NCBI GenBank assembly: GCA_003971905.1 | Contig: RSEE01000094.1 | Span: 62,001 to 126,000, forward strand | Direction of reading: 5' to 3' | DNA: 64,000 nucleotides | Source of the DNA: Moniliella sp. 'wahieum' | Taxonomy: Eukaryota | Part shown: positions 1,770 to 59,839 of the stretch, piece by piece | Layout: each line of letters begins with the position of its first letter | Position numbering within the stretch: position 1 is the first letter of the stretch | Made by a program: the position numbers and the translations under genes | Notes under the pieces: generated by a model | What the model was told of the DNA's origin: nothing | What the model saw: the letters and a program-made list of their open reading frames with translations, nothing else | The model's database searches: none

Positions 1770-3968
1770 GGTGATGATGTACATGCGTGTGGGTTGTTGG
1801 GGAAAGGGAGGATTATTATGAGGAGTTTGGTCGTTGGATGAGAGAGCCGAGTACGTTATTGCTGTTGTGCGGGCAGTTGCGGGGGGGATGGTACACGTAG
1901 CTACTTTCTATACAGATCTCCTTTGGAGGGGGGAGCAAACGGGATATAATCAGTTACGGGGTTAGGTTCAGGGCCAAGTGTACTGAGGGAGAATATGGGC
2001 TGCGGAAATGTGCTACAGGCCTTAGGCCTTAGGCCTTGACCTTAGGCCTTGAGCCTGTTAGGCCTAAGGGTTGGTGGGGCAGCAGCCTGCACGAGTTGCG
2101 CGAGTCCGAGCAGACGCGGCGTTTCTGAGACGATGATACATCGATCATCATGCATCAACCATGATCGGCATCATCATTGGCTTCAGTGAGGACTGGGAGA
2201 GAGGCCTGGGTAATATACCGGCCTTAGTTACATAGAAGCCTTTTTACGTATCAAAGACAGGACGATCTGGAGTTGCTATAGTTGCTAGTTGTGACCCGGT
2301 GCGCGTTGTGGGACCCCGCACCGACTAAGTTACACGAGTTTGCCACCCCCAGAGGCCGCAGCGCCCCATGCAGCACAAATCCTGGTCCGGGCCTGCGGGA
2401 GCAGCTAGGAGGTGTGGATGAAATACCCGAAACCAGTGGTGTGTGGAAGGCGGCAGGGCATATGCAACCGACCTGTTTCTGCCTCCCCCGCTTGTGTGCA
2501 TCATGTGATCGGCCTTTCCGGGGAAATCTCATCAACGTACCCGGGCACCCTATTGTGCACGTGTAAGCATGTGAGCGCATGGGCACAGCAGCGCCCAGCC
2601 TGAGCGCGTGAGCACGTGAGTAGCGACCAGCATGTGCAGTACAATACACCACCGCTTCCACTAGTCGTCCGAGGCTTACAGCAGAAGGTGTGTTGGACAG
2701 ATGCCTCTTCCCACGCCAGTTCTTCCACCTGGGACGAGCTGGCGTGGGGCTATTAACGTTGTGACGCGATAATCGAAAAACCCACACCAGACCAGCGCGT
2801 AACGCGTAACGCGCGTAACGAGAGGAATGCATGAATGGGCGGGTGACCAACTTCTCCGCACAGCTATATTAGCATGGAGTCTGGCGCAGGGGTCGTCTTG
2901 GTTCGTCTCTCCATTACCATTCCACACCATGCGAGCGAAGTGACTGAAGCAGGGAGAGGCCCGATCATCGAACAGATCTCAGACTTGAGAAGCTTCAAGC
3001 CAACGTAATAGTTACTAGTTACTAGTTACTAGTTACTCGTACCGGTTACCGGCAAGTTACCCGCCACCTTAGCTGCTAACCCTGCCGACACGCCGCATTC
3101 CATTTGAGGCGCTCAGGCGCTCAGGCAAGGAGGGGGGGAACACCAGTGGACGCCTGTGGCTGTGTGAAACCCATATCCTATCTCCCATCCTGCACAGAAT
3201 TCCGGATGGATGCCCGGGGCGATCAGTACGTAGCTAGTAGCGCCGTGCCGTGCGAGCAAGTCTATTGTTACACGTTGCTAGTTACTAGTTACTAGTTACT
3301 CTCCCTCCCGCCGGCCACCCAAGCAGTTCTCTCAAGTCCCCTGCAGTCCTCTGCAATGCCCTGTGATGCATGTGATGCATGTGATGCATGATGCAGTCCC
3401 ATGCAGGCGCGAGCCGAGCTGCCGTCGGGAAACGTACCGCGTTCTGACGTAGGTGATTAATGAGAGACGTGCCATATTCCCTGACCGTGTCATGGGTGAC
3501 CGGTGGGTACTCCGTCCGTACTGGGGCGGTTAAATGCTAACACTGCTTGAACTGCTTAACCCTTCCTTGCGTCGGGCAGTCCACATGTGTCCTCATGCTG
3601 TCCGCGCGAGGTGGCTCAGCGGCAGGGAGCAGGGACGCTTGGGAGGCCAGGATGTGTGATGATCGATGATCGGTGCGAGCTCAGGCGCAGTGCGGGACGC
3701 ACTGACGCGCTGCGGCGCTGATCGGGGGATCGGCACAAGGGCCGGCAGGGACAGGGGCGGTGTGTGGGATGCGGCCGGGGGCGGGCAAGGCTGCTGTGCG
3801 CTGCTGTGCCGGCCGCTGCCCCGCACTTTTCCATTCAGAAGGCCACCGACACGCATAACCCGTGCGTGCTTCTGGTCTGCGCTGGTGGCAGCCGCTTGGG
3901 ACCGATGGCTGATCCTCGATCCGCCTAATCCATCCCAGCCCGAGCGTCCGAGGCGGAGGTGCTGCTGC

Positions 3969-7310: not shown

Positions 7311-8454
7311 AGAGGGGTACAGGATAGATCAAAAGGGAGAACGGATACAAGAGGAGGTGTAGAAAGGAAGACACGTCAAACGATGGGTTGGTTGCCGCAG
7401 ACGCGACCGAGAAAGGAAAAGGAAGTGGGGACAGAAGCGACAGTCGTTGTAAAGATACCGTAAGCTTGGTGGCCTTCAGTATTTAGGCCATCCGACTTTT
7501 GGACTTGGGCGGGGGCGACTATTGTTGCACGGACGCATGTTGGTGTTGAGCCAGGTGGCTCGTGCTTTGGCCAATGTCCCTTCAGTTCCTCCGCAGGCCT
7601 AGGAGTTCCGTTGTTTTTCTCTCTCCTGTTTTTCCTTGTTCCGCAGCTTAGACCCTGGTGGCGACTCGCTGCTTGATGTTCCTCAGTAGGCGTTGCTGGT
7701 TGGCTTAGACCACTACCACCACCACTATTGCGATTGCATCACCCTCGAGGACCATCTGGACTCCAGGTCTCATCAGTTGGCCCCGAGCCACCGTTCCTAA
7801 TTTAACCCACCACCATCACATGCATCACACTTGGTTGGACTGCGGAGCACGCTCTCCTGGGCATGTGCGGAGCAGGCGGGCCTTAGCTTGGACCGTCCCA
7901 TCCCGCGTCCAACGCCGCCGTGACAATCGTTGAGCGTTTGACCGTTTGGTGTTGGGTCCTATTAACGTCCTAACCTGGTCGCTGAACTTGCTTCTCGATG
8001 CCTCTCATCGACATCAAGGTAGCATTACCCCGCATCTCAACGCCGAGGCCCATTCTAACGGGTTGGCCGAGCGGTTGCTGCGCGCTGACTGCGTGCGTAT
8101 ACTGGGAGTACTGGGCACTTGTGGAATCCGGACCGACAGCTGCGAAGGTAGTGGCATGTGGCACATGACATCTCTTTATTCCATGTTCGAGCAGGCAAAA
8201 GAAATGTGCAACCCTACTGCCCGCCGACCACGTGACGGGTGGGTGGGGCTCGCCAATGATCGGGCATATGAGAGTCGCGTCGACGCGTCCCTCCACTACC
8301 TTAAAAGGGGAGCGGTTGTGCAAAGAGTAACCGAGTAACCGTGGCACAAGGCGGAGTGGTGGGGAGCCAGGAGGATGTGAAGAGCAATTGGGGTATTTGC
8401 CACAACGATACGGGGGTGGGGACAAGAAGAGGAGGGGGGGGGGGGCAAAGGGGA

Positions 8455-8800: not shown

Positions 8801-10923
8801 ATGCTGACTATTGGTTGACCCCTTTTTGGTAACCCCCTCCTCATCTCTAAGCCCCATCACACTGGCATAGATGTTGATAGAGCGAAGCAGATGAAGCTGC
8901 TAGAGTGCGACTTGGGTCCTACGGATCAGCTGCAAATCCGCCTTCAGACAGGCGTGAAGGCAAAGAGGTGAGCCACAAGTCTTCAGGCAACATCGAGTTG
9001 AAGGGACGGAAGGAGACAGGAGAGAGAGAAGGGAAATGAAGCGAGCAGGGCGCGCGCGCCCTGCGAGCGGAACTCTTCCGCGATCCACCGAGGGCCGTGC
9101 AAGGGAACCCCAGCACTACCCTCCAACAGAAGCAAGCGGAGGCTGCGAAGGCACTAAGAATGTCATCCGATAGCACTTCCTCGTGTGACATGTGACACAC
9201 CGGTGCATGTGATGCGTTGTGTGATGCGTGTGATGCACGTGATGGGTGGTGTGTGTGACATGGGGCATGCGGAGTTCCGGGAGTACCTAGCTACCTCGGC
9301 AACTAGTAACTAGTAAGGTACGTCCATTTTTGCGACAGCGCAGGGGGAGTGGGTGTGCTGGTTTGCCACCCTGTGCGCACGCACAGCGGGGCTCCGCAGG
9401 ACTGCGCTTGGCTGGACCTGCGCATTCCAGGGATGGCCAATGGCCGATGGCCGATCGATGGGCTCAATCGTACTATAACCGAGGTTTTGTGGGTCTGGGC
9501 CATGCGTCCTGCGTCCTGCGCGCGGAGTGCAGGAGAGTACGAGGGTGGGGATGAGTACGATGAGTACACTGAGTCCTGTGCGTTGAAATTTGAATATTGA
9601 TCTTGAAGCTTGAGTACTTACTGAGTAACTGAGTGCGTCGATTCGATAACCGAGGGCACAGCCGCGGTGCGTTCGGCGCCGTTCCGTTAAATACAAGGGT
9701 AGGTGATCGGTAGGTGATCGAGATGATCGCATGCATCATGCATGAAACATCATGCATCGTGGCCGAATTATTTCCACCTAATGAGTACGTTTAATGAGCA
9801 CGCAGGGAAGATCGGCGATGTGCAGTGGCGGGAGCAGGCTGGGCTTGGGCCTGGGTGCAGATAGAGCTGCTGGTGGGGAGGGGCCGGGGACAGCTGGAAG
9901 GCCTGCAGGGCCGCACAGCGGTCGGCTGGCGCGGGCCGGAGTGCTGGGTGCAACGTGTAAGCGCTAAAAGGCCAACACTGCTCGCTAAGCGCCAACCCAG
10001 GGGCGGGCAGAGGCGCAATGTGGGCCCAGGGCCTCCTCCGAGGGGCGCAGTAGGCGCAGTGCGGTGTAGTTCGCAGGACCACGCTCGCCCTGGCCAGCGG
10101 GGGAGGAGTGTGATGCGTGTGAGAGATGCTGTCAGGTGTGCGGAGCGTGTCTCAGGAGCGGTCTCGCTAGGCTGGGCCAGTGCGGGGGGGCGGAGGGGGG
10201 AGCGATCGGGTCGGCTTGGCTTGGCTTGTGCCTGCTTTGGCTCATCGTCCCCGACAGACGCTCGCACCGCCCTCGTGGCCGCCGCTGCGCTCCAGGCGGC
10301 TCCCGGCCGCTACCTGCTGCTGTGCCGCATGGGGACGCCCAGGAGCGCACATCGGGGGTCCCAGCAGTGCGCCTCCGCCGTTGGGCCGACGCTGCTGGGG
10401 TGGCGCGTGGGTGGGGGCGCATGCTCTGACAAGCGGCGTTGGTCGATGGCATGTGCAGTGCCCCGTGCCGGGGCGGGCGCACAGAGCCAGTGTGCTGCTG
10501 CGTGTGCCATATATAGCGCGACACGGCCTGGGCACGCGGCTGCCTGCTGGTGCGGCGCACATGAGATGGGTGATGGGTGATCGGGGGCAGCGCCAAGGGC
10601 CAAGCTGTGGAGGATGCGATGAAGCCTGGAGCGGACGGACGAGAGACGGCGCTCCGATCGCTTCTTCGGGCTCGCGAAGAGCACCAATGGGCTGCGTCGA
10701 ATTGTCGCTCACACATCACGCATCAGCTCTCACACCCACGGATGCCCACGCGCCTCATCAGCCACAGCCATCGTCTATATCATCCTCGCCCTCTCGCCAC
10801 ACCTCTCCGCTGCCCAGCCCTGCCCCCCACGCAGCCCCCCCGCAGCACATCGCTTTCCTTGGCACCACCACCACCTCCCGCCTCCTCTTCGGGCTGGCCT
10901 CGCACCAAGCCTCTCGTAGCAGC

Positions 10924-13454
10924 ATGCCCACCCACACGTCCCCGGCGGCCTTTACGCCGCTCGACCCCACGCCCTCCGACACGGGCAGCAGCGACGCAGC
11001 CCCCGCCCCCCGCCCGCGTCACCACCTCCTCTCCCCCGCTCGCGCTCCGTCGGCCTACCATCCGTCTGCTCGCGCGCCCTACCTTACTTCCTCCTCCCCG
11101 CCCGTTTCCCCCTCTGGAGGCGGGAACGAAGCCCAGCGCGCCTTGCACGCCGGCCTCTTCCCCGTGTCTACCACGCTGTCCGCCCAGCAAGCCGCGGGCT
11201 TTGGTCCTACCTCCGCCTCCAGCTCCACCGCTCTCGTTACCAGCAGCGCAATCTCTTTCCGCGACGCAGCCAAGACAGGCGCCGCCTTCCCGACCAGCGC
11301 CCCTGCTTCCACCGATACAGGCAACCACTCTCCCGCGCGATACGGTGCGTTCTCCGCCGCGCCCGGCGGGGAATACCAGCTGGGCGGGCTGTACAGCTAC
11401 GACCTGGACGAGCTCGACGACGATTTGCACAGGATCCAGTTCGTGTCGGACGGGCAGGGCGGACAGCGGGTGATGCTGGAAAAGGGGTCGAGGGTACGGG
11501 CGTGGGCGAATGCCAGGGCAATCATGAATGGAGGTACGGTGTTGGTGGTGCTGCTGGGGCTGCTGATGCTGTTTGCTGGCTACCCCATCCTTACGCATTA
11601 CCGTCACCACCACAACAACCTTGGTGGCTACGGTCCTGGCGGTACCAACGCGTCTGGTCAAGTGGGCAGCATGCCCGGCGTGCGCACCGACCTGATTGAC
11701 CCCGACACCCCGCAAGACGCCTACACCCGTCTCTCGGCAGACGGAACAACCACGCTCAAACTCGTCTTTTCCGACGAGTTCAACACCCCCGGACGCAGCT
11801 TTTACCCCGGTGACGAGTACGTTTGTGCCTACTGTTATCGTTATCTTGCTTTATGCCTGATGCGCGCCCATACAAACAAGGGCGCCGGATGCTGACCTAT
11901 TTTCTCCCTCCCCTTTCCCTCTCTTCGCGCGCGCTCTCTCTACGCATATTTGCTGCGCACTACCCAGCCCGTACTGGGAGGCGGTCGACCTGCACTACTG
12001 GGCGACGAACAACTATGAGTGGTATGACCCTGCAGCCGTGACGACGCAAGGGGGAGCCTTGCACATCACGCTCTCTCAGCACCCGGAGCACAACCTCAAC
12101 TTTCGCGGGGGCATGATCCAGTCATGGAACAAGTTTTGTTTCACGGGCGGCGTGTTGGTTGCCAGTGTTCGCTTGCCCGGCTCGGCGACCGCGCCTGGGC
12201 TCTGGCCTGCGATTTGGATGATGGGCAACCTAGGTCGTGCCGGGTACGGCGCTACACTGGAAGGCACCTGGCCCTACAGTTACGATGCGTGCGACGTGGG
12301 TACGCTGGCCAACCAAACCGACCCTACCACCAACGAACCGAACACGGCCGTGTTGGGCAACTGCCCCTTTAACCGCAAACACAGCAGCAAGTCCCTCTCC
12401 TTTCTTGGTGGCCAGCGTCTGTCGGCGTGCACGTGCCCCGATGACGACCACCCCGGACCCAAGTTGGCCGATGGCACCTTCCCAGGCCGAATGGCCAGCG
12501 AGATTGATCTGTTTGAGGCGCAGGTCAACGGGCAACAGCAAATGACTGTATCACAATCGGGGCAGTTTGCCCCGTTCAATGGTACGTGTGTCGCCCCCGT
12601 CTCTTCTCTCTTCTCTCTTCTCTCTTTCTGTTTCCGCTCCCGATTGCCTAGAGCTGGCGTTGGTTGGCGCTGGGAGTGCGAGCCCAGCAACCTGTGTGCT
12701 AACCCATTTTCTCCATTCCCACTCTCTGCTTTCTAGCCTACTACCGCCCCATGACCAAGCCGCAATTGTTTGACCAACGAACCATTGTCAACTCGTACAC
12801 GGGCGAGCTGACGCAGCAGAGCATGTCGGGTGTGACGCCGACGAACCAGCTGGGCGTAGAGTACTTGACCAACGGGAGTATGGGCATCTTTACCGAATAC
12901 GCCGTCGAGTACGAGCCGGGCCACGACGGCTTTATTCAATGGGAGTCCAGTGGCCAGCCTGCGTGGCGCTTGACTTCGGAGCAGCTGGCAGCCGACCCTG
13001 TGGCCAACATCTCTTCCCGTCCCGTCACGCCCGAACCGCTCTACATTCTTGCCAACCTGGGCATCTCGCAAAACTTTGGCACACCGTCGTGGAACAAGCT
13101 GGTGTGGCCCTCGACCATGTCGATCGACTGGATCCGCGTGTTTCAAGATCCAGCCAAGATCAACGTTGGTGCGATCCGCCAGATTACCCTACTCAAGACT
13201 ACATTAACCGTCACATCGAAGCGTACACCAACCCCAATCTGACCGTCTGGGGCGCAGGCGAGGGTGGCTACGGTGCAAACTGGCCACGCAACCGCCTGAA
13301 CCCAGGCGGATGCGATGCCACGCCTTCCACGTCCGCAGGAAGCCCGACGGTCCCCGTGCCCAAAGCCCAAGCCTACCCTTCTGCGGCCATTGGCAACCAT
13401 CAGCCCCAGTGCGACGTGTCGGCGTGGAATGATGGCCAGATCCAAAATTCCTAG
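10924..13454 (+). CDS. KRE6: Beta-glucan synthesis-associated protein KRE6/SKN1 (GH16-like type II membrane protein); introns 11817-11967 and 12582-12736; one apparent 1-nt deletion near 13170
   Basis: Single TM segment (VLVVLLGLLMLFAGYPIL), then [67 protein letters not shown] and CDPPDYPTQDYINRHIEAYTNPNLT. Confidence 0.92.
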
Positions 13455-15008
13455 AGGATCGCTCCCTCCTCTCGCTCCCCCCTGCTTTGGTGGGGATCTC
13501 TCTTGTCACCCGTCCTCCCCCCTCCCTCTCTGTCTCTTCTTCTCGCGCTCGACTCCCTTGTCTTCCGTGTGTCCATCAGTAGCTTAGTCCCCCTCTCCTT
13601 GCTGGTGCCGTCATCAGGTTGTGCACCGATCCGTTCCCGTACCATCTCTCTGCTTGCTCTCTCCCCACCAATCTATCCCTCCCCCACTGGTTCTCTTCGT
13701 GTCCGCTATCCCTCCCCCCTCTCTTCCCGTTTGAGATGTATCTTGCCATACTTACGGATGTCTCACTGTTCCTATATACGGAACGGCTTATAGATCCTTG
13801 ATATTTGTCTCCTTCCTCCCCCTCCACCTCCCGATTGTCGCTGGGCCATAGTTATTGGTTTGGTCTCTCTATTCCATAACCGGCATAACCCCACCAAGGC
13901 CGCGCTCCGATTTCAGCGAGGGTAGTAAGGATGTTTGTCAGAACAGCAGACAAAATACGGTACATGCAGCGCGCTCCATTTGCATCCAATGCGGCGCCCT
14001 CTTTCTCTCGCATCTTATTCTCATCGGGCCTCTCTATCCATTTTGGGTTCCCTTTTTTGCTGTTGCGTCTGGACGCATGCTCACTTGTCTTTTGCTCTCT
14101 TCCACCGATGGTACCGATTGCTTGCCACCGCTTCCTCGGCTACAGCATGGGAAGGACGTGGGAGATGTCTGGAAGACTAGACTCTGACCCGACCTCGCTC
14201 GCGTGCAAAAGGTTAAAACTCACGGAACAACGCCATACCCCGGGCACGGGCCGATGTGACATACACGCCAGACCCCCACGTGTCAGGGCTTCCACCCCTC
14301 CGGCCAACGCGTCTATATACCAACATGCCAAAAAGGGATGAAAAAACGTGTGCTAAAAACCAGAAACTAAGCAACCCAACCCACGCAAGACAGCAAAGCA
14401 ACAAGCCAACTGAGAAACAAAACAGAACAAAGCAAAACCAAAAAAAAAAAAAAAAAACGGGCAAGCAGATAGGGCAGGAACAAATCCCGCCCAATTCACT
14501 CTTTGTCGCCCGCGACAACAGGAGATCATGGCAATGGCAAGGGAGGCAACGTGGGCGCCCAGAGAAACGGGGGCAGCGCCACGCGCCAAGCGTCAAGCGT
14601 CAAGCGACGGGCCCAGGAGGCAAAAAAAGCAGCGGAGAAAGGTCCTCTCACCTTCTCGTTCATATAGACAATTCGTGGTGGGAGAGGCGGCAAATGCCTG
14701 AAAGTTAAGGTGGGGGAGAAGCAGGTCGAAAACAGGAAAATCGGAGTGGAGGCGAATGAAAAGATGGTGGATCGGCCTCGCATGAACATGAAAACGCCAT
14801 GGGCCATCAGGCCTCAGGTGCAGCGTGACGTCCTGAGAGCAAGCTGTGCACCGGGAACGTTGAACCGAGGGAACAGGTGCACCAAGATACGGATCTTGAT
14901 GGGTTTGGCTTGGCCAAAGTGGACCACTGCACCGCAGGACCCACGGTTGCAAGGCATTCCTCTCAATCACCATTGGCGCGGCTCTTCCTCGGATGGGCAT
15001 GGTCACGT

Positions 15009-15986: not shown

Positions 15987-16968
15987 GGTGGGTGGGAGAG
16001 ATGGAGAGGATGTCGTGTCGAGGTTGGACGTAGCCCGAGGCGGTGGGGTAGAAAAGACGGTGGTGAGGATGAAAGGAAGGTGGAGATTCAGGGCGAGAAG
16101 AGACCGAGGAGCAAGAAGGGGACAGGCAGATGGAGGGAGCGATCAAGCAGACAGTTCTCTCCACATGGGCCTATCCATACGTCCGCTCCACGGCACCACA
16201 TGCACACCCGCATAGACTCAGCTCACCGTCACCGGGTCACCGCACGAGCGAGCAAGTCGCCAGGTCTAGCTTGAAGCTTGACTAGAGTGACTTCGGAGCT
16301 GGTCTGGCCCAGCGTCGATCTTTGATCATGCATGCGGTGCCCTGCATCACGCGTCATGCATCATAGAACTTGGTCTCAGATCTCACTCGCCTCGCCCGAC
16401 CCTTGGGCCTTAGCCTTACTGCCCCTTTGTACTTAGCAGCAAAAAACTTATATGGCCGACCCTGGAAGCTTGATAATCACAAGTGTCAATCACATTAATC
16501 CAGCCTCCATGGCCCACGAATAATGCCTAACGCCGATCGCTTCGGTGTCGGCGGGACAACCCAGCACAACCCGACCCAGCGCCACTGTGCCGCTGTGCAG
16601 CCGTATTTCACCGAGCGCTGCCTGCAGCTCGCTTATTAGCTTAGCCTAAGCGCTGAGCATGGTGGCGCACACTGCTTCAGTCGGCAGCGCGAAGCAGTGC
16701 CAAGCAAAAGGCCAACACGCATCCCCATGCAGACTGGCCTGCCGCCTGCCGCCTAGTGCAGCTCGGAGCGTTCGGAGCGCTGACGCCCTCCCTCGCTCTC
16801 TGCCTCGCTCCCCACCTCTCCGGACCGAATCGGACCCATCAGAGCCTCACTAGCTCACTGCCTCAGCACTCACTCACCGACACTGGCAGGACGATCATCT
16901 CGATCATCGATCGCCAACCACCGATCACAGGTCACCGGTCACCCCCATATGCCAGCTGGTGTTGCGCC

Positions 16969-17054
16969 GCATGGTGCATGATGCATGGTGCATGATGCAT
17001 GATGCATGATGCATGATGTGCATGATGCATGATGCATGATGCATGTGCATGCAT
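16969..17054. repeat. (TGCATGA)n heptamer array, about 11 imperfect units
   Basis: Read directly; the longest member of the TNA-palindrome repeat family. Confidence 0.9.
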
Positions 17055-17247
17055 ACTATATCAGACAGCATCACGCGTCACGCGTCACCCACCATGCATC
17101 AGAACGATTTTATATTATAGCCCCCAGGCGTGGGGCCAGTCTGGGGCCAAGCTGCGGCTGAGCTCTGCGCACGCCCCCTTCTCTGCCGTTCCAGCTTCAA
17201 GCTTCAGCTTCACGCGTCACGCGTCACCCTTCGAGTGATGCTTCAGT

Positions 17248-17326
17248 ATGTAGCTTCCCAATAGCTGCCCTTTGGGTTACGCGTCACTATGTAGCTTCCT
17301 AGTAGCTGCCCTTGGTTACGCGTTGC
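17248..17326. repeat. About 40-bp imperfect tandem duplication
   Basis: TATGTAGCTTCC..TAGCTGCCCTT..GGTTACGCGT occurs twice head-to-tail. Confidence 0.8.
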
Positions 17327-18849
17327 CGATTCTCGATTATCGCGTTACGCGTTACGCGTTACGGGGCCTCTGGGACGTGTGCATGATGAGCCAGAGCGTA
17401 CCCGCTCTGTCGAGCAGGGAGGCGGTGTGAAATTTGTGAAAGAGGGCGTCCCCCATGGGGCCCAACGTCCAACACCGGGTAGATTGCATTTGAAATGCGA
17501 ACAGGCCGAGTTGGCAATACTGCCAGACCAGGTTGCAACCACACACCGCCCATGGGCGCTGGCTCAGCTAGAGGCTGGCTTGCTTCTGTCGTTACGCACA
17601 CTCACACCATTACCCACCACCCCCACACCGCCACCGAGAACCACTTAGCCTAGGGGGCTCGCATGGATCGCAGTAGGTCTAAGTAAAGACTCGGCGACAT
17701 GGAAATTCAGAGATGCACCACGTATTGGGGCGAACTTTTGACAAAGGCGTCATTTTGGGCACAGTTATGGTCACCTAGATCACTTAATAAAGCTGACACG
17801 CCACCGCCCCTGGGGACCACAATGGTCCTCGAGGGTGATACAATCGTACGTTGTGGTGATGCAGGTGTGGTCTACGCCAACCAACAACACATTCTACCGC
17901 TGGACCGGACATCCCCGGGCTTGACTGGCAATACTGAAGCGAGAAAAAGGCGGAGCTTCTAGTCCTGAGAATGGACTGAAGGGACCTTTTTGTCCAAACG
18001 CATCACGAGAGCCACTCTGTGGCACACATCATGGTTGTGGATGCGCGTTGTGGTGCCGCCCGTATTAAACAGGGCGGGCATATACGCCTAGCTCCCACCT
18101 ATATCCTCACGCCCATCGGATGCGCTCCCAACCCATCAAAGCACGTCGAACCTCACAGGACTATCCCTTCTGGTCGGAAGTGGCCAACGTGCTATATCAA
18201 AGGTATGTGAATCTCTGATCGGAAACCTGTCATTGATGATTCTTAAAAGTGCAGACGGCCAAATCTGGGAACCTCTCGAGAACGCACTCAGAAACGGTGG
18301 AGATGGAGGTTGTGTCTCCTTTTTCGGTGAAACGGGGGAAGAGAGTGTTCATGGATGATGCTTGATTCGATCTTTAATACTAGCGGGAAGCGCCCAGCGT
18401 GATGTTCGCTAGCCCTGGGTGTCCGGCGTGAGGCGCGCCCACGGTTTTTTTGTGGGACGGGTCCGAACCAAGTGGTGGGCTTCCAGCAGACCAACGCTTG
18501 TGCGTGTCGGGGGTGGCAGAGCGACTTGGGGCCGAGATGGTCCGTTCTCCGCTTTTCGGCTTTACCCCTACAGCACGGCTTGAAGTCTTTTCTGTTCGTA
18601 TGGACGAAGGGAACTCCTATTTCTGGTAGGCGACACTCTATTATTACCATCAGCCTCAATATCGCTCAAGCTGAGCAGCTGAGCCCAGGTAGCAGCTGCG
18701 ATTTGTGGGTGGCATGCCAGCTTCTCGCGTCTCTCATTTCTCTACTCCGCGTCCCCACACCCAGCAATGGCTAATCGGGGGTGCAAGAGGCCTGCTGAGT
18801 CCTCTCCCTGCACGGGCCCCGGCATCTAGACTATAGACATTGCATCTTC

Positions 18850-19045: not shown

Positions 19046-20196
19046 TCATGCTGGGCCCTCACTCCCTGCCCTTGCTTGTAAATTCTGATCGTTCCTCAAG
19101 AGCCGTGTTCCCCTTCACACCCTCCCGGCCCATTGAAGCCTTCCGTCTTCACGAGCACGACAGGTCCCAAACGTGCAACCTCTCCTTTCAGACGCTGCCT
19201 GGCTCTGCTCCACGACTTGCACGGCACTGTACTCGCGATGCATCCAGGGTCAAAGGAAGGTCTCCGTCTGGGATGCCAACAACCACGGGAGGACCAGTTA
19301 TCCTATCTATATGGGACCTTCTACATAATGCTGAGGTCAATGCAGTAGTAGGCTGATTCGCCTGTAGATATGGGTGATTCATGACATTATACTCGACAAT
19401 GAGGATCATCTGCAAGGCAAGAGAAATTCCATGTCAGCACATGATCCCATCTCGCGCACATGTGTGGGTTGTGGGTCCTCAGGCAAGAAAGTGTCATCAG
19501 GGCACCTACACCAAGCCCAGCCGGCGAAAGCGGACTCGTTCCATGAAATGGGGTGAGGCGACACAGACGCAATTACCATAGAAACATCCTCGGAATAGCA
19601 GGGAAGGAGAGCAGAACGCACCATATGCGGAAGCCACAGGGACCAGGAAGGGGCGCAGCGGCCAAGAAGAGTAAAAAAGGTCAGTTGTTCATCCGCATAA
19701 AGGACCCTACCCTGGCAGGAAGATGAAGCGTCAAAGCAAAAGAAGCGGGATGGCGGTGGGAGGCTGGGAAGAAGAAATCCGGATGGGTGGCCGGAAGAAA
19801 AAGGGGGGGTCGTGCCTCCACCTGGTCCGGATGTTGCACCGATGAAGAGGCCGCGGCTGGAGCAGAAACATGCATGTTGAACGTTGAAATGACATCAGGA
19901 CGTTTGATTTGGCAAACTGGGGCCGTGCGAAGCGCTGTGGCGCCGAGGCGCAACTCGATCAAGTCACATGTCACACTGGCGCCGTACGGAGACGCATAAA
20001 AGTTTCACTGCGAACTTTGTCCGGACAAACCCCATGCGCTTTCTGCTCGCCTGTCTTTCTCCGTTGGCGGTGGAGCCTGCAGTGGTAGGCTGCTGGCTTT
20101 TTGCTACTTCCTTCTCCTTTGTCAGATCCCCCCTTTTCTCTTCTCTTCTTTTCTCTCTCCCTCCCCGTCCCTCTCCTTCCCTAGTCTGTCATCACC

Positions 20197-24227: not shown

Positions 24228-26772
24228 GGCAGGCCGAAGCGGTCGAGAGCGCTCGCAGGAGGGGTGGATGGGCCGGTACCGATGGCGAGAGGGCCGATGG
24301 ATACGGCCGATGGAGAGACGGCCGATGGAGAGACGCCCATGCTGCGATGGGCAGCGGGCGCCGGACTGGCAGCAGACCCGCATGATGGATCAGGCAGATG
24401 CTGGCCAGAGCCAGTATATCATCCGCGAGCGCAGTTTCTTCCTGTGCTCTCGCCGCGAGTCACTAGCCACGGCACCGGCACACGCATCGGACATCACGTG
24501 ACTGTCGTCTCGGCAGGCCAGCATCTCCATCGAGGTGCCAGCGGAATTCTGAGTGGGTGAGGCCGATCGATGATTCACTAGTGCCAGTCCGACAACTGAC
24601 CCGACTGGCCACCGCCGAACGTACTGAACTGGCTGCCAGCAGGACTGACCCATAACTAGTGTCTAACAGCGGCTGTAGCATCACCGTGAACATCGAGGGG
24701 CGGCGGCCGCAAACGCGTCGTCGATTGAGCCACATCTTCAGAACCCAAGCTTCAGAGTTTTTACGGATGGAGCCTCAGAGGCCCGGGCGGCAGCTACTAT
24801 CAGTGTCGGTCTAGCGCCACCAAGGTTAAGGAACCAGGTATACCACAAAAGTCGAAGGCCTACTACACACCGCCAAGGCAGCAAATAATATGCGATTCGG
24901 GCTGGGTTTGATGGCATGCAGCTGCATGCACAGCGGATGGTGGCCTTCCCGAAACTTTCTATTAGATGGATGGGATCAACCTATTAACCGACCGCCCATG
25001 GTGCTTCGATTCCCACTTTATGTTGGTTCTGCTCGAGACGGTGGAGGCTATCACTGCCAAAAGGTGGGCGCGCAGACCGCAAATTCAGATTTCGTCCGTC
25101 GGCAAAGTACCGGCCCCGTATCGTCATGACCAGGGGGAAGAACGGTACTTGAGTGCGTCCGTGCAGTGGTATGCGGTGTTTTCTTGTCATAATCTGCTTG
25201 CACCCGCGGTCGATGTTCAGCCTTCTGCTACGTTGCGAAGGCGTTGCGGTTTCCTTGTATATCACCTTCCGGAACGGAACCGTTGGCCTCCGTTGGGTCC
25301 ACAGGTCCCTCTCACTGAATGTTGTCTACTGCAACAGTCCTCGGACCTCAGCCTCAGTACTGAGCGTCAGTCCACACTTGATGTGCACTTACTTCGCGAG
25401 GAACGGCATAGGGGGGGTACGGGGCCCTGAGCTGGAGAGAATGCGAAAGCTATATTAGGTGAACGAAATCGTTATGTCCATGACATGTGACAGTCCATGT
25501 GACAGGTCTCCGCCTCTCAGGACCTCAGGGTGAGGCACAGCCTCAGCCCCTGCTGCGCTCACGCGCTCACCCATAGAGGGCCTCCGGGATCTCCACCCTC
25601 TCAAAACGTCCAATATCCCACGTCCAAAACGTGCTCTATCTTGATAACGGAGTCGTGGTTATCAGTACGCAGGACACGTCACGCGTCAGATAGGTCCGCA
25701 CGCATATTTAACGACAGGTCGGAGTAACATGTGACAGGGGTGACTTTGGGCAGCAACCATCTCCGAAGCACGGTGCTGCTGCTGCGCTGTTGTGGAAACA
25801 TACAAACTAAACATACTTAAGGGGGACAGCTCAGGGATGCGGGCCCCAGTGCCAGCCACTCCCTCCTCTTTATCTGGCTTTAGGGATAGGGGGAAGAGGC
25901 CGCAGGCCACAGAAGGGCTTTAGACGGGGTCTTCCCCCCTGAGGGCGTGGGGCCGGGCCCTGAGGAGCCTGAAGTGAGGAGCTAGTGAGGGGAGGGCGGA
26001 CGACAAACGTCACAGGGCGTTGAACTGAAGATTATAAATGCGAAACGCGTTCTTGCAGCATCAAAATGGCCGAACCGAGGTCGTGAGCGCGTGAGCACCG
26101 ACGATCCGAGTTGAGCTTCAACGCTGATGCTGGTCTGGTGCTGAGAGGAGCACCGTGTCCTGTGGAGTTGCAAGTCACAGGGACGCGTGAGAGCTATATA
26201 GTAGTGCTGCGCTGGAGACCGTGACGGAGACAATAGATGTTGAACGTTCAAGTTGAACGTTACGTTGAACCTGACGAGTTAGTCGTTCAACGTTCAACGC
26301 TTTGAACAGGGGCGCTGTGGGGCGCTGTGGGCAACAAGTAGCTCGGGCTAGGGGTTCCCGGTTATGTCCTACGATACGACGTGTGACATGTGACAGTCAC
26401 ATGTGACACTCGGGGCAACCCGTAGCCGGGAACCTCACGCCCTGAGGGCATGAGCGCTGGCTGAGCGCCGAGCGCGCTCAGACTGAGCTGAGGCCGTTGC
26501 CCAGAGCGTTTATCATCGCTTTTCATTCTCGCGCATGTGGGAGACGAGCAGCGTGGAGAGGTTGACGTGTGACGTGTGTGACGCATGACGCGTGATGACG
26601 AGGAGACGGGTGACCGGTGATATATGATACGGGCCAAGGCGGCACTGCAGCGCACGGCGCTCTGCCGGGGCAGCGGTGCGCCTGACACTGGCGCCCTGCC
26701 GCCCACTGCTCTGGCTCTCCTCTGGCGCCGCGGTCTCCGCTCAGGCTGAGCTCAGCACCCTCGACGGACTGA

Positions 26773-29216
<2,444 letters not shown>

Positions 29217-30489
29217 TCCTTTCTCCTCGTTGCCCTCGCTTTATCATCTCCTCGCCTGTCCACATTCGTCCATTCCCAGACTCCGACCCCAACACGGCCT
29301 CAGTCCCCCCCCCCCCCCCCCTGCTCTGCTTCTCTTTTGCTGTTCATTCCCTCCTCCTTACCTCACCCTCCCCACCTTTACCACCCACTTCTCCCTTCAT
29401 TCCTTTCATGCTCTCACTATACCCCCTCCCCCCTCCCCCTTCTCCCTCCCCCGCCCTTCATTGGGAAGGGTCCCCTCGCTTGCAGGACTTGTGCGCCGTC
29501 CCCTTCCATATGTCCCTCTTGGTGGTTCCCCCCCGTCTCGTAGGCTTCCTCCAATCCTCATCTTACCTCTTGGGCCGTGTGGTTGTGACCACCCTCTCCG
29601 GTTGACTGTGGGTCGGGTCTACTGCGACGTCGTACAGGGACACGAGAAGCAGCAAGGACACTGGTGTATCGAATATGAATAACACCATTAATTAATCACC
29701 TACTGTGCATCCCATGTCACGCGACACGCGTCACGCATTACGCCTTTCCGTGAGCGCTTGAGCAGCCCCATCATCAGCATACCGCCTACACTGACGCTGC
29801 GCTTCGCTGTGGACAGGCGGAACGAGCCCGGCGGGAGGGAGGGTTACATACCTTTAAGTCCTTCGCATACCACAAGTCGATGGCACCGCATATGTACCCT
29901 TCATTGCCTGTGCCGGCACCGCTGTGGGCGCTGCCGCCCGGGCCGCCCCGCTCCCCGCTTCGCCCCTTGATTGAATATTGACAGGATACTAGTCCTGGTC
30001 CGTAATAGACTCTTCAAAAGCTCAAGAGTATAATGATGATCAATGATGATGTCGATGATGATATACATGGCGAAGTATAGCGACCACAGTCTCATTCAAC
30101 CGCAGTCTGGACGGATCAGATCGAGGACTGCGTTGCTGAAATCAGCGTCGGAATGACTGATGAGAGCGTGCTCAGCGACGCGGCAAAGGTCTTGGCAAAC
30201 AGCCGTTATGTGGATGATGTCCGCTTTCTAGAAGGTGGATGTCAGGAGGTTGTCGCTTGGCTGACATGTGAGACTGGCTCCACGAGTCCTCGCTGCAACA
30301 CCTCGTCCGAGGAGAGCAAGATACAAACAAGTGCATGCCCATTTATTCGTTACGTGGGACAGCGTAGTCAGATCTCAGAGCAGGTGCACACACACAGTGA
30401 TCTCGTTCTGGGGAAAGGCATGGGGCGAGTGTACCGAGGTGATCGATAGCCAGGGTTTTACTCCGCACTATAACATGGATTGCCTCTCG

Positions 30490-44906: not shown

Positions 44907-45241
44907 CGTTGATGATCACGAAGATCGAGGGGACTGTATCCAGGAACCCACGCCTGCGTCGCCTGCTATATGACTTCTGCGTGGGTATATATGGGTACGG
45001 CCGTTCGCTCTTCTGTTCACGCGGGTCACGTGGACAGCCTAGACAGTCTCACTTCAAGAGCTTCAAGTTTCGTACTCAGTACTCACACCACACACTCCCT
45101 TTTTTGTTCGCTTTAATGCTTTGTTAGACACCATAATTTTTGCGTTACGGGACATTGGACGCCTCTAGTACACAGGCGTATCCATTCGACAGGATCATAG
45201 CTTATACTTACCGGCACTTTGCATTCATATATCACACAGTC

Positions 45242-45467
45242 TGTCGGGATCAGACCCACATCGTCACCCATAGTCACCACAGGTTGACTAGTCCCTATAC
45301 TGATGATTTGTTCTAGACCCTGTTTTCCCCCGTTGTCTATGCTCCCCTTGTTTCTTTCTCTATGCAATTCAGCTCGCATGTTCTCTTTTTCAAGGCGTGT
45401 ATACCTCGCCCCCTTTCCACTCGAGGAATATGAACCTCATCATTGCCCCTATCTCCATCTCCTGTTA
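45242..45467 (+). mobile_element. Solo-LTR-like element, copy A (most diverged)
   Basis: TGTCGGGATCAGAC...TTCTAGACCCTG...AGCTCGCATGTTCTC...TATACCTCGC...CTCCATCTCCTGTTA. Flanks CAGTC/CCGCC match at 3 of 5. Confidence 0.7.
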
Positions 45468-46403: not shown

Positions 46404-46625
46404 TGTCGGGATCAGACTCACTTGATCACGTTCTTTGTCACCAAGTTGTCTGGCCCCCTTTTGATTTGTTCTAGACCCTGCTTTACCCTTCGGATTGTGC
46501 TCCCTCTTTCCCTCCATGTGGTTTAGCTCGCATGTTCTCTTCTTCTCCGAGGCATATATACCTCGCTTCCTTTTCCACTCGATGAATATGATCCTGGTCC
46601 TTCCCCCCGTCTCCATCTCCTGTTA
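46404..46625 (+). mobile_element. Solo-LTR-like element, copy B
   Basis: Same termini (TGTCGGGA...CCTGTTA) with an internal TATATA. Flanks ACTTT/ACTTC match at 4 of 5 (putative TSD). Confidence 0.78.
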
Positions 46626-47410: not shown

Positions 47411-48763
47411 GAGTCTGGGCAAATCGACTTATTCGTCGCCCCGTGAAAGAGTCGCACCGGCGAGTTTTTTGTCGTCGCCCTGTACGCCCTGTTATTATTC
47501 ATTCAGCGAGGGTCCAGACAGATTGAAGCAAGTGGCCCTATAAGAAAGATGGTTCGTCTGTGGAGAGAAATCTCAGCACGAAGAGGTTTTGTGGACTGGA
47601 CGAGTGCGATGATGTTCGCTTCACCGTCACCCCCAATGGCCATTTTTGGACTCAACACACCTGTCCCGTCACAGTACTGAGTGATGGAGACAATCAAACA
47701 TGGTTGCCAGTCATCGACCAGGCCGGCCTTCCTGCTCTCCTGATTTTCTTGCCCCTTCCCCCCCATCAATATAGGCTTATTTTGAGGGCAAAATCTGCCA
47801 ATGTGGGAATTAAAGACGTGAAAGACGGGAGCGAAAGCGAAAAGCCTATAATAGTGGTACACTCTGCCCACGAGAAAAGACGGGCAGCATGAGGTTCTGG
47901 TATGAAGCCGGCCTAAAGCTTGAAGGCTGCACTGGTACAAGGGTGGACTTGTTAGTGCAAGACGTCCTGGTCGCTTTGAATGGGGGAGGGGGGGGGGGGC
48001 GCTCTTCGTACACGACAGACGGGCGTATGAATATTGATTCAGTCAGCCTATCCGGCCTGAAGGACCTGATCGATGATCAGTGATCAGCGCTCAGCCCGCC
48101 CCAGCTCAGCGCCTGTCGGACACTCCGACACCGCAATGCAAGGTTTCAAACGGTAGGTGGTTGCTACGTTTGCATCGTCCTAACAAACAAATAGCCGCGG
48201 CAGGGTTATAGGAGCATCATGCATCATGCATCATGCATCATGCACCAGCACGTGCGTGTCCCAGACATGCCATGCCATACATGTCAAAATGCTACGACAG
48301 GCCCATGTCACATGTCGCAACGCCTGACAAAGAACTGTCAACAGTGAGTCTCACAGTAATGTTAATGAGACTCAATTACTCAGTACTCAGTGAGTACTCT
48401 CGTACTCCTCGCAACAAGTGAGCTCGAAAACACCTTCCACTCAATTCCTACCTGCGAGGTCCCTCCAAAACCTATGTGCGCTGTGGTCATAATCGACACC
48501 ATCCTCGGTCGGGGAAGAACTAACGCGGTCCTTTGTCTCTCGCGATTCAACTGAAAAACTAACATATTGTGTCTCTCTATTTAACTAAGCTTAAGCTTCG
48601 ACCCTTCAAGCTTCAAGCTTCATGCTTCAAGTTATAGCTTCATGCTTCAATAAGCCTCAACGTTGATTAAGATAAGATCGATACGAGATCGTAGCACTAA
48701 TCAATATCAGAGTTACTTTCTCGCTCATGATTTCGTCGACCATACAATGCCGAAACGTGGCCC

Positions 48764-50008: not shown

Positions 50009-51363
50009 GTCCCAACGAGGTTGGGGGGAGACGTGACGTTATGCTGGCCTGAGGCCCTGAGGGGGCTGAGGCTCAGGCGGCCTGAGGCCTGATGTCGCAC
50101 GTCACAACATGCAATGTCATGCACCGCAAGTTCACCACTTTCGAGCATCATACATCGTTCATCTACCATCATCGATCATCTTCCTGATTGGTTCGACTGG
50201 TACAGCTATGGCATGTGACATGTCACGAGAACTCTCGGCCACAGCGGCCACAGCGGGCCACAGCGGGCCACAGCGATAAAGAAACGCCGACACTTCCTAA
50301 GTTCCTGAGGCCTGAGGCTCAGGTCAGGCCCTCAGGCCCGAGGCCGCTTGATACATAGATGATATAGATCCCCAAGGCTTGTGAGGGGGCTACCGGTCCT
50401 AAGCCTAAAGCTGGTAAACAGATTATGGCCTTCAAGCTTCAACCCTCACAGGTCTTATGACCTCAGGCTCAGAGCCCCCTCTCGTCAGCGCGTCAGCGTG
50501 TCCACTGTCAGCAACCCAAGTGGGCTTGCGGCGCTAAAAGGATTTTATATCCGCATTTATACGCGGGATCGAGAGTACCCTGTTCTCCGCTGACGTTGAC
50601 CGTGTTGAACTTCAAAGTTGAACGTTGAACGTTCAAGTTGGCGCAGTCAAGTTGAAAGATGAACTAACTCATCGATCATCTGCCAAACGGCCACGACAGG
50701 CCACGACCCCCGCCTAAATAAGCTTACGGCCGGAGACTTCCTTGGGCGGAGCGAAAGAGGTGAAAACCATGGGATCGATTATCATTTTATCGATGACCTC
50801 GATGGCCACCGGTTTCAAGCGACCCGGCTACATCAGCGTGTTATGAGCGTCTTGTCACGTCGAAACGATAAGTTCGCCAACATAATGCAGCGCTGGCACA
50901 GTGTAGCGACGTCCTGGTCCACCCGGGGCTACTCCGGAGACCGCAATGATATGCTGAAGCGTATAGGACAGCAGCGTAGGCGATCGATTGCGGGCGAGAT
51001 ACGCGTTGGTGGTCGGAACACGAACGAGAGCTACAGTGGCTTACTGGCTACACGCACGCATTACCAGTGTTTCGGAGTCTGAGGAGCCTCGGGGCTAGTG
51101 AGACCTGGGTGAGACCGGATGGGCTCCACAACATCGGTACAACCAGCCTGTGGCAATAACAAAGGCCAATGACAGTGATGTTCCCGCCAGTGCAAGCTTC
51201 CTTTGGGCTCCTGTGTTCGCCCCTCGTCGCTCCTCCTTCTCTCCACACCGATACCGCTTCCGCTCGACAATTCGTTCACTTCTGGGCCCTCGCAATCAAC
51301 TCCCTGATATGGTGTTGTGGCCCCGTCAGTCACGCGGCGGGATCCATCTATTAATTGCGGGGG

Positions 51364-53762: not shown

Positions 53763-55491
53763 TGTGGCTGTGGGCGACGGGGGGGGAGTGGCATGACGGG
53801 ATTGGAGTACAAACTGCCGGAAAAAATACTGCTGGTGGAAGATGTGGTGGTGGGACAAAGGTTGGAGATATAGGAGAGAGTTGTGTGAAGGAAAGGTGAG
53901 CAGAGGGAAGACAATCTCTCTAGCCGCACACACGGTATCATAAGGACATGTTGTCACAACACTTCATACGCCTACTCTTCGTGACTATGACCACTCGAAT
54001 TGAGCCGGAGGGAGAATTGAGGCTCACAGAGGCGGACTCAACCCTCAGTTCCAGTCTTCAGCCCCTCAGACTGAGTTCCCGCAGTGCACACTGCAGAGAG
54101 GCCGTATCCTCACTTGAGACAGAGGTAATATTACGAGATTATTCAGTAAAATTGAGACGCCGTGACTAGTGACTGGGAGCAAGCACAGAGACATATGATG
54201 CTGTAGTCACTTGTTGATTCTCACGCGTCACATTCATACATCCCCGGCCTTATCATATGCGGAAGGGAGGATCGATTAGGGGCTCTCCCTGTTGAATGTT
54301 CTAGTTGTGCTGCTACAATGCCCGGTCTTGATTTTGAGATATATTGTCTTCATTCTGTTGACAACTGCGCTTATTGCACGTCAACTTGGGTTCAACCCCT
54401 TTTGTCGCACTTTCGACTTATGGTCGTGTGTGTGAGGTGTGCAAGGAAAGCCTTAGTCTTGTGGAGAACAAAATGCGCACGTGGTGTCGCTTTGGGAGTA
54501 GCAGGTACGAAGGGGATAAAAAAGATAGCAGTAAAATTATCGAATAGCATACTATGAAAAGGAGACCCACACACTGAGGCCACCAAGAGTGACTGCATAG
54601 ACGATGGTAAGGACATCTCAATGCTGTTTGTTGTGTATCCCCAACTGAAATAGACGCCGAACAATAACCGTAGTAGAGTATAACTATTGCTGGTAATTGT
54701 CTTCATGGAAGTCTCTCTTCTGTGAGTTGGACAGGTGAAGCTAGCTTGAAGTCTTTTTGAAAACGGGGAATATATGAACGCGTTGTTTGATTGTTTTCCC
54801 TCTTATAGTACTTTGGTTCTTTCTTGCCCACAGAACACCCAGGCATAGAGTGTGTTTTTCCTTGCCACAGCAGCATGCTGTTTTGGAATGTGATGGATTG
54901 GATGGACATAGAGTATAGTAGGGTAATAGTGCTATGAGTAAAACGTCCCCGTTTTCAACCACAAACCTCGCAATGAACTTGAGCACTGACGCGTGACGAG
55001 AGCGCCTCCGTTCCCTGCGTCGGTATAAAGCTTAAAGCTTAAAGGGAGCCGGTAGGCAAGAAAAGATATTGAGTGCCGAGTTAGTACTACTCCAGAGTCC
55101 CAGCACTGATGCCCTCACGCTCCACGTCTGAATGTGGTGGTCTTTTGAGACGCTGGCCACTATTCCGTAAGCAAGCGGCACCCCTCATCGGCCTCATCGA
55201 TCATGTGAGACTTTCGAAGCCTTCCGTAGACCGGCCTGAGGCCTGATTAGTCCATTGGTCAGAACACCGCAACGCCATGCATAGATAATCGATAGTTGGC
55301 GCGGGAAATCGCAAGCATCATGTCGTTCAATATATTCTCAGAACTCAATGTGCGGAACAATCATTAATCACTAGTGACAAATGGCGTATGCACTAAGTAA
55401 CAGTCACTATTCACTAATGGCACGGGCCGCAAGCACAAAATCCAGCAAACTGCATATGCATGACTATGTGAGAAAACTCGTTTAGCTCTCT

Positions 55492-58334: not shown

Positions 58335-59839
58335 AGAGTTGAATATTGAACGTTGAACGTTGAACAGTCAAGGGATGCAATGGATGCAATCCTCACCCGG
58401 GGTCCAAGGAGTTAGGCGCTGTTTCTCCCCTAAAAGCACGGAGGGCTCGGGCTGAGGCCCAAACGGCTCTAGTTTGCGGCATGTCGATGAGGGTTAACGC
58501 GTGTCCTTCTCCCACGTGAAGGAGCAGCAGCTGGCCCTTATTCCCCACCCCCTGATCATTGAATCTTTCCTTAGCCCCGAGCCATTGACTCCTTCCCCTA
58601 CCGATCAGATTGGTTTCGCTACGTCGCATCCATCAAGTGTAAGACCACCGCCCGGTACTTGCTTCTATGCCACATGGATTCTACTGTTCACAACGTCCAC
58701 ATTCTTCGTTGGGAGTGCGTTCATTCCCTTGTCCCTTCCCTGTCGTCCTTGAAAATGTCACGAACCTTCAATTGGCCCCATCTCTCACTGCATCTTTCCC
58801 CCCCATCTCGTTCCACTGAGGGCCAAATGCTTCTCCCCAGCTCTTCATTTAGGCTGCTTGGTTCCTCTCGAGAGTGGGTCGGGACGGCTACCGCGGACCG
58901 CGTTACGGATGCCCAAGCACGAGTCCTGTTCCCTATCCACACACCTGGACCGTTCCGATTCGATACTACCATAAAGCACTAACAAGGGCGCTCAAGTGGG
59001 GTGGAAGATAGGGTCGGAGGTCCGAGGACAGGGAGGCAGGGTGGCCTGGGGTAACCTAACTGGCAATTGAGCTGAGCACCGTGGGCAGGGGATCCTGCCC
59101 TTGGCCGTATGCGCACGAGTGACGGTTCACAGTTCACGTGACCTCCAGGTCGGTCGATGACGAGGCAGCGAATGTTGCACTGGTTAGGGGACGCGGCATT
59201 GGAGGTAGTTGAATCGGCTCTCTCGGAAACAGTGGTTGGCTGGAGTGAAGAGATTGAAGACGGTGCTTTTTGTGGGTCAGGCCGGTCAGGTTAGGCGCCG
59301 GGTGTGAGCATATGTGAGGACCAGTGGTGAAGAAGACAGGTTCATAGCCGGCAAGGAAGATGGTGTCAGACCAGTACCTTCAAAGGCATTCATATTGAAT
59401 CTCGATGTCTTTTTCACCACACCTCGGGGGACCTGCCGTCCCAGCGTCCTTAGCCTTGCGTGGAACCCAACACAGGTCCAGTCCCTGAGGATTGTCTCGC
59501 ACGTCTCACTTGCTCCTCCCCCCCGCCCCTGTCCCCACTACCGCGTCGCTGGACTAGCACAACTTAGCAGCAAGTTTACCACGCTACCAGCTTATATCTT
59601 ACCAAGCTAGGGTCGTCGTGACGCCTGATGGTGGGAAGCGGCGCACCTAATCTGGGAAAGACAATAAATGACTCGCATCAGGCCGAACGGCACGTGATTG
59701 AACGTATGAAGAAGTGAAAAGGGAGGCGCGCCAAGCATGTCGCTTGAAAAGGAACGGCTACGTGGGTCTGTGGACACAGGTGGAGCGCTGGAACGTTCAA
59801 GTTGAACGTTAAGGTAGGATTAGGCCTTAGGGACCAACA

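Follow-up and report, generated by a model that had tools for sequence, protein, structure and literature searches.

How can a row of different palindromes come to stand in a single register? The question is raised by positions 9584–9620 of a 64-kb stretch of contig RSEE01000094.1 (assembly GCA_003971905.1, contig positions 62,001 to 126,000 of the forward strand; hereafter the window, with coordinates counted from its first base). There, direct reading gives TGA-AATT-TGA-ATAT-TGA-TCT-TGA-AGCT-TGA-GTAC-TTA, in which four different palindromes are joined by TNA triplets. The original prediction listed this chain together with four others (16347–16363, 26611–26627, 55361–55377 and 58340–58363), and all five sequences are exactly as it gave them. 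It further held that chains of this kind are too numerous for chance, that slippage of identical units could not have made them, that changing one palindrome into another takes paired, symmetric substitutions, and that selection or an enzymatic process enforces the symmetry. The evidence set out below leads us to a different account of how the symmetry arises, namely that the chains are, on balance, probably clusters of excision-type footprints, most simply those of a cut-and-paste DNA transposon that targets nnT(C/G)Ann.

Chance was ruled out as the source of the mixed chains by Markov simulations. When a chain is defined by the regular expression TNA(pal4 TNA) with two or more repeats, the window holds 19 chains, 13 of them uniform and 6 mixed. 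The simulated controls contained on average 0.030, 0.023 and 0.077 mixed chains at Markov order 1, 3 and 5, respectively (300 runs each), and never more than 1, which bears out the predicted count of at least six mixed chains where chance would supply fewer than one per window. Single units are likewise in large excess, with 105 in the window versus 8–17 in the simulations. Pairs of units that carry different palindromes occur 6 times at a distance of 7, versus 0–3 times at any other distance from 8 to 60 (mean approximately 0.55), and this excess (Poisson P = 2e-5) survives the local clustering of units. If the linkers are ignored, different 4-bp palindromes are not enriched at offset 7 (200, versus 184–269 at other offsets), nor are different 6-bp palindromes (21, versus 7–28 elsewhere). 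Since these linker-blind pairs remain at background, the excess of mixed pairs belongs to the T-N-A linkers.

The chains form part of a wider pattern. Among the 235 TNA-NNNN-TNA ten-mers in the window, 105 (45%) have a palindromic centre, as compared with 5.8% of all 4-mers in the window, 15% for the next best pair of linkers and 78 of 1137 (6.9%) TNA-N4-TNA sequences in 80 unrelated metagenome contigs (653 kb), a composition control whose closest members are only distant relatives (at most 56% identity). The enrichment is confined to fillers of 4 nt; lengths of 2, 6, 8, 10 and 12 are not enriched, and TNA-Nk-TNA has a count of about 140 at every k in the range 0–14 apart from k=4, which has 235 and whose entire surplus is palindromic. 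The same middle base stands on both sides in 85 of the 105 units, chiefly as TGA...TGA (36) and TCA...TCA (35), so that the triplet is a direct rather than an inverted repeat. The units group into 81 clusters (62 single, 14 double and 5 triple), and all 16 possible palindromes are represented. Five of the 105 lie inside open reading frames (ORFs) of at least 180 amino acids, which make up 38% of the window, versus 30 of 130 for the non-palindromic TNA-N4-TNA sequences. Perfect units (excess about 82) are roughly as frequent as one-off units (excess about 72), the latter departing in the filler (about 14), in a linker base (about 43) or by unequal middle bases (about 15), and this near parity fits steady birth followed by neutral decay, with no need for selection on symmetry. 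The scarcity in ORFs, the complete set of palindromes and the abundance of one-off units mark the process behind the units as mutation-like and not functional.

Period 7 dominates the tandem repeats of the window, with 54 perfect repeats of at least two copies versus 2.85 expected, and 33 of these 54 units consist of a 6-bp palindrome plus one base, a form taken by 10% of random heptamers. Both figures favour an explanation in terms of ordinary heptamer microsatellites, whose palindromic 7-mers would form hairpins that promote slippage, the mixed chains then being old arrays diverged by point mutation. Uniform arrays reach about 12 heptamer copies and fold well, as hairpin-prone slippage microsatellites do; the TGCA array at 16993–17039, for example, has a single-stranded DNA fold of -20.7 kcal/mol (z -2.9). 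The chain at 58340 also resembles an array changed at one CpG, in a window whose CpG observed/expected ratio is 0.85. Other properties of the units disagree with slippage. Most clusters (62 of the 81) are single units held in an obligatory T-N-A frame, and the commonest form amounts to only 1.7 copies with boundaries locked to TNA in 20 of 22 cases, which is not a product of whole-unit slippage. Moreover, the A....T form accounts for 32 of the 33 palindromic units, although palindromes closed by G/C should fold better. The focal chain itself has no structure as single-stranded DNA (0 kcal/mol, z +0.8), and passing from AGCT to GTAC requires four substitutions. We therefore consider microsatellite slippage an unlikely source of the pattern as a whole.

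The footprint reading draws its main support from the anatomy of the units. In single units, one half of the palindrome equals the neighbouring dinucleotide outside the unit in 53 of 124 checks, versus 1 in 16 by chance; uniform chains match in 17 of 26 checks and mixed chains in 5 of 12. Among the 45 single units with equal middle bases, the flank continues the period on one side in 26, on both sides in 9 and on neither in 10. Period-7 runs of the unit type have 5 as their most frequent length above background (22 runs), and in 20 of these 22 the whole TNA lies within the repeated 5-mer. A typical locus thus reads TSAxy-y'x'-TSAxy (S being C or G), a 5-bp direct repeat whose 2-nt spacer is reverse-complementary to the dinucleotide beside it; further conservation was looked for in the flanks beyond the unit and none was seen. 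An independent class of loci has longer repeats, which expose the complete target. Exact 7-mer repeats with a 2-nt spacer have a centred TNA in 7 of 19 cases (base rate 0.043, P = 9e-6), and 6 of these 7 have a spacer reverse-complementary to the two bases next to it, while 7-mer repeats with a 1-nt spacer have a centred TNA in 3 of 6 cases, all 3 with a complementary spacer. These centred-TNA variants of period 8 and 9 are not slippage products and, together with the predominance of single units and the TNA-locked boundaries, they uphold the earlier judgement that simple slippage of identical units is insufficient. The junctions are heterogeneous in the manner of end joining, with a net gain of 7 bp dominant, variants of +8 and +9, and an irregular 3-nt filler at 9601–9603. 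The target is nnT(C/G)Ann, duplicated over 7 bp, and the anatomy fits an excision-type footprint.

Flank copying also bears on the proposal that symmetry is maintained after the fact. Because the halves copy adjacent bases, each palindrome appears to arise anew from its flank, which makes both paired substitutions and selection unnecessary; the predicted conversion of one palindrome into another by symmetric changes finds no support outside the chain at 58340, the only one that fits it. Selection on the binding sites of dimeric regulators, or correction of one half by the other, would account for the placement of units in gene-flanking non-coding DNA, often right upstream of genes (9186–9967 ahead of a KRE6-like gene and 19878–19973 ahead of tryptophan synthase), and for neighbouring palindromes that differ by symmetric pairs of transitions (CGCG/TGCA, TTAA/CTAG and ACGT/ATAT). 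Yet all 16 palindromes occur in one T-N-A frame, which no single factor would read, TGA and TCA units are equally common (36 and 35), and one-off variants roughly equal perfect units in number. Palindromes of 4–6 bp would also be too short to form the hairpins of template-switch correction, and neither selection nor internal correction predicts that flanks are copied. Selection or correction is for these reasons a very improbable explanation. Of the two forces first proposed to enforce symmetry, an enzymatic process stands as the likely source, and selection is left unsupported, given the copying of flanks and the frequency of one-off units.

The anatomy and the statistics are direct observations; from them we infer the hairpin steps and the transposon that make up the proposed mechanism. 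In this scheme, an element would insert at nnTSAnn with a 7-bp target duplication and, upon its departure, a hairpin would seal each flank. Host enzymes would then cut each hairpin two bases from its tip, which is where hairpin opening of the Artemis type typically occurs. Each end would be left as duplex up to the TSA with a 4-nt self-complementary overhang, xy y'x' on one end and q'p' pq on the other. Retention of one overhang and trimming of the other would yield pq-TSA-xyy'x'-TSA-xy, in which a perfect 4-bp palindrome separates two TSA copies and the site has grown by 7 bp, whereas opening of the other hairpin at its tip would yield pqTSAxy-y'x'-pqTSAxy, a net gain of 9 bp. Every event would leave a new TSA in a perfectly symmetric context. 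Renewed hits on this new TSA could add identical units and so build uniform heptamer arrays, which would also be open to slippage, and a mirror-type hit at the same TSA could add a second, different palindrome and create a mixed chain such as that at 26611–26627. Later point mutations, for example the CpG changes at 58340, would diversify the units further.

Several other constructions were weighed and set aside. Duplication of a 3-bp TSA with two bases contributed by each transposon end was rejected on the grounds that the full set of 16 palindromes is present and that each half repeats flanking bases. Duplication of 5 bp with two P-nucleotides fits the commonest form and needs an asymmetric target; it was superseded by the 7-bp repeats with centred TNA. 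A plain 7-bp duplication of an existing odd palindrome was rejected given that the commonest run length is 5, not 7, and inverted duplication on the count of 71 same-strand C/G pairs of middle bases versus 9 complementary pairs.

The individual mixed chains fit the proposed mechanism to different degrees (Table 1). The chain at 26611–26627, whose two outer flanks template its two palindromes, has the pattern expected of two events at one original site, gg-TGA-ta. The chain at 58340–58363 is probably a three-unit ACGT array in which the single CpG of the first unit has mutated on both strands to give ATAT, as its left flank agrees with ACGT and disagrees with ATAT. The focal site is scored as two mixed chains connected through the irregular TGA-TCT-TGA, a link that looks like an imprecise junction. 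Six copies of TGAGT lie within about 90 bases at 9550–9636, in duplications of 7, 8 and 9 bp around the focal chain, which suggests a local hot spot for duplications anchored on TGA. It is plausible that the focal chain was built by repeated imprecise events at this hot spot.

Table 1. Repeat features of the window, with coordinates counted from its first base. Repeats of the 2-nt spacer class have, like that at 45052..45067, a spacer reverse-complementary to the neighbouring two bases.
Position	Feature	Remarks
9584..9600	Focal chain, first half, TGA-AATT-TGA-ATAT-TGA	Outer flanks gt and tc; neither fits the palindromes
9598..9606	Irregular link TGA-TCT-TGA	3-nt non-palindromic filler (9601–9603), 6-bp step; read from the sequence
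9604..9620	Focal chain, second half, TGA-AGCT-TGA-GTAC-TTA	Left flank ct equals the final two bases of AGCT; right flank does not match
9620..9634	ACTGAGT-A-ACTGAGT, adjoining the focal chain	7-bp direct repeat, centred TGA, 1-nt spacer complementary to the neighbouring base; period 8, run exactly 7, type L
9550..9567	GATGAGTAC, two copies, shortly upstream of the focal chain	
16347..16363	Mixed chain TCA-CGCG-TCA-TGCA-TCA	Neither flank fits; two transitions at CpG positions separate CGCG from TGCA
26611..26627	Mixed chain TGA-CCGG-TGA-TATA-TGA	Outer flanks template both palindromes, gg on the left and ta on the right
55361..55377	Mixed chain TCA-TTAA-TCA-CTAG-TGA	Left flank aa fits TTAA; right flank does not match
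58340..58363	Chain TGA-ATAT-TGA-ACGT-TGA-ACGT-TGA	Both flanks (gt left, ac right) agree with ACGT; gt disagrees with ATAT
16993..17039	TGA-TGCA uniform arrays, 3 + 2 units	Largest heptamer array of the window
3012..3035	Uniform array TTA-CTAG x3	Period continued by both flanks
48217..48240	Uniform array TCA-TGCA x3	
45052..45067	CTTCAAG-AG-CTTCAAG	7-bp repeat, centred TCA, 2-nt reverse-complement spacer, period 9, type R
17426..17441	TGTGAAA-TT-TGTGAAA	7-bp repeat with 2-nt spacer class, centred TGA, type L
59275..59290	GGTCAGG-CC-GGTCAGG	7-bp repeat with 2-nt spacer class, centred TCA
13875..13890	CATAACC-GG-CATAACC	7-bp repeat with 2-nt spacer class, centred TAA
30045..30060	GATGATG-TC-GATGATG	7-bp repeat with 2-nt spacer class, centred TGA
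7814..7829	CATCACA-TG-CATCACA	7-bp repeat with 2-nt spacer class, centred TCA
50048..50062	CCTGAGG-C-CCTGAGG	7-bp repeat, centred TGA, one complementary base
26082..26096	CGTGAGC-G-CGTGAGC	7-bp repeat, centred TGA, one complementary base

A number of observations weigh against the transposon footprint explanation. The focal chain carries four different palindromes (AATT, ATAT, AGCT and GTAC), only one of its four outer-flank checks fits, and the simple model permits no more than two palindromes for each original site; the chain is only partly explained. A search for inverted repeats bounded by an identical TNA returned 2 matches across the window, both with minimal 9-nt arms and no more than for other triplets. 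No transposase domain was found in the 95 ORFs scanned from the 132 of at least 130 amino acids, those left out being mostly overlapping frames. With 81 clusters in the roughly 39.5 kb that long ORFs leave free, or approximately one scar per 500 bases, the units are very dense for scars that each require insertion plus excision. The even length of the palindromes (xy|y'x') means that the hairpin geometry is not that of classical hAT elements. Plain TSA-TSA without filler, an expected by-product, shows no enrichment (144, versus a background near 140), non-palindromic 7-bp duplications with a centred TNA were not seen in the window, and a pair of adjacent palindromes between TNAs is represented there by a single partial case. 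Finally, the whole analysis concerns a single sequence of 64 kb.

The missing element and the density are met more easily by a host-encoded enzyme, such as a domesticated transposase or another dyad-symmetric nuclease, that cuts nnTSAnn in open non-coding DNA and is followed by the same hairpin-type repair. The motif, the flank copying and the centred 7-bp repeats would be shared by such a resident enzyme and a transposon, the window yielded no transposon, and a resident activity would reach 81 clusters in 64 kb more readily than an insertion and an excision every time. Against it, a direct duplication of 7 bp is the kind of trace classically left by integration through staggered cuts of the target, and a lone nuclease would have to combine fill-in of 7-nt overhangs with hairpin formation, a combination for which we know of no precedent. 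A candidate gene for such an enzyme was not identified in the window. We regard a purely resident enzyme as improbable and retain excision by a transposon as the preferred source of the footprints.

One dispersed sequence in the window deserves separate mention. A repeat of about 235 bp is present in three copies (45268–45470, 46430–46625 and, on the reverse strand, 51411–51560) that are 80–97% identical in parts and contain a TATATA-like stretch. The three copies show no inverted ends, no matching flanking duplications and no 7-bp unit differences among them. This repeat could stem from duplication of a promoter or leader, or could represent an old element.

Of known systems, the closest in kind are the excision footprints of hairpin-forming transposons (hAT elements such as Ac/Ds and Hermes, Transib and MULE), together with the P-nucleotides of V(D)J coding joints. 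According to the parts of the source that deal with excision, hAT, Transib, MULE and RAG make hairpins on flanking DNA that Artemis-like host enzymes may open, and end joining often leaves footprints (PMC5499845). For Ac/Ds in Candida and yeast, the footprint sections of a second source describe palindromic P-nucleotide insertions that are affected by yeast Pso2 and are centred on the complement of the base beside the element (PMC5873905). As far as these sections go, the likeness lies in a direct repeat of the target duplication around a short insert that is reverse-complementary to the flank, in junctions that vary by one or two bases, and in scars that lie in non-coding DNA. By the same sections, the window differs from Ac/Ds in that its palindromes are of even length and its fillers are even 4-bp palindromes. 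Within the window, the form expected of a classical 8-bp hAT duplication, a 6-bp repeat with a 2-nt complementary spacer, is not enriched (2 and 1, versus 1.3 expected). Even-length palindromes would imply a hairpin geometry nearer to that of the RAG/Transib type; the Transib target duplication is 5 bp. Unlike known excision footprints, those of the window are also unusually uniform, with one outcome (net +7) dominating, and very dense and stacked into arrays, with no element seen in the window.

The length of the duplication offers a second line of comparison. As described in the relevant part of the source, the usual hAT target duplication is 8 bp, and duplications of 7 bp occur in the hAT7 families of rust fungi and in Kyakuja of Laccaria (PMC12730594). 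To the extent covered there, these elements share with the inferred system the 7-bp duplication, cut-and-paste transposition and basidiomycete hosts (PMC12730594); they differ in being reported from rust fungi and Laccaria, and no homologue was found in the window. The duplication in the window, centred on T-S-A, is thus unlike both the 8 bp of hAT and the 5 bp of Transib. Another possible parallel comes from Ustilago maydis, whose numerous 10-bp repeats have been proposed as footprints of past transposon activity (Laurie et al. 2012, Schirawski et al. 2010, as cited in PMC4081816). In the portion of the citing article concerned with them (PMC4081816), these repeats are short, numerous and scattered between genes in a basidiomycete with few transposons. 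TSA-pal4-TSA is likewise 10 bp long. The window is not from Ustilago, its best named protein matches being only 43–60% identical. Text searches of the literature found no description of the TSA-palindrome motif, although supplementary material may bear on the point; nor did we find a description of the sequence rule, of the 7-bp target centred on TSA or of a connection with heptamer microsatellites.

Additional repeats surround or resemble the units. A 41-bp tandem duplication (80% identity) at 17227–17308 lies between two TCA-CGCG arrays and a TTA-CGCG array. TGA-ACGT units stand next to each other in both orientations (TGAACGTTCA) at 26239–26300 and 50604–50640, where they form perfect 10-bp palindromes beside direct repeats. 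The odd palindrome CCTGAGG/CCTCAGG, the commonest single target context of TSA units, occurs in many direct and inverted copies at 50040–50345, 55233–55246 and 57760–57795. Elsewhere in the window are a long G-rich tract (GGGGA/GGGGC) at 61758–61843 and a long C-rich tract at 29305–29459 that includes a run of 17 C.

The window has a G+C content of about 56% and carries eukaryotic genes with introns. Pfam matches include glycosyl hydrolase 1, a KRE6/SKN1-type glucan synthesis protein, a fused tryptophan synthase and a protein kinase, as well as Rpb7, ribosomal L1, an FGGY kinase and two alcohol dehydrogenases. The KRE6/SKN1-type gene (10171–13451) is split across four ORFs in differing frames, pointing to several introns per gene in this genome. 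In a partial alignment, the tryptophan synthase is 54–60% identical to its best named relatives, from Rhodotorula and Rhodosporidiobolus; those of the L1 protein are from Exidia, Lentinula and Exobasidium (41–49%), and the neighbours of the KRE6 domain in the ESM Atlas are for the most part Basidiomycota. We take the source to be a basidiomycete-like fungus of a poorly sampled lineage. Observed/expected dinucleotide ratios over the whole window are 0.67 for TpA, 0.85 for CpG, 1.17 for CpA and 1.15 for TpG, a bias that suggests mild CpG decay, and CTAG and TTAA stand at 0.44 and 0.58 of expectation.

If the footprint explanation is correct, a single mutational process would lie behind most of the short repeats in the window, including the excess of period 7 (54 versus about 3), and would have left a scar roughly every 500 bases where no long ORF lies. 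Microsatellites and small palindromes could then be seeded by a mobile element, or by an enzyme akin to one, in the promoters of a compact fungal genome that now has few or no visible transposons. The rule pq-TSA-xyy'x'-TSA-xy can be counted in any genome, so that the activity could be dated and traced across lineages, and such counts would also put to the test the abundance of transposon footprints long ago suggested for smut fungi. A bolder version, which we entertain as speculation and think rather unlikely, envisages an undescribed transposon family or domesticated enzyme that forms a highly active, TSA-specific break-and-rejoin system, with a 7-bp staggered cut and RAG-like symmetric hairpins, and that continually writes palindromic heptamers into gene-flanking DNA. 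Such a system, if real, would be the main source of the small insertions and heptamer microsatellites of this genome and would provide its promoters with a steady supply of symmetric binding sites.

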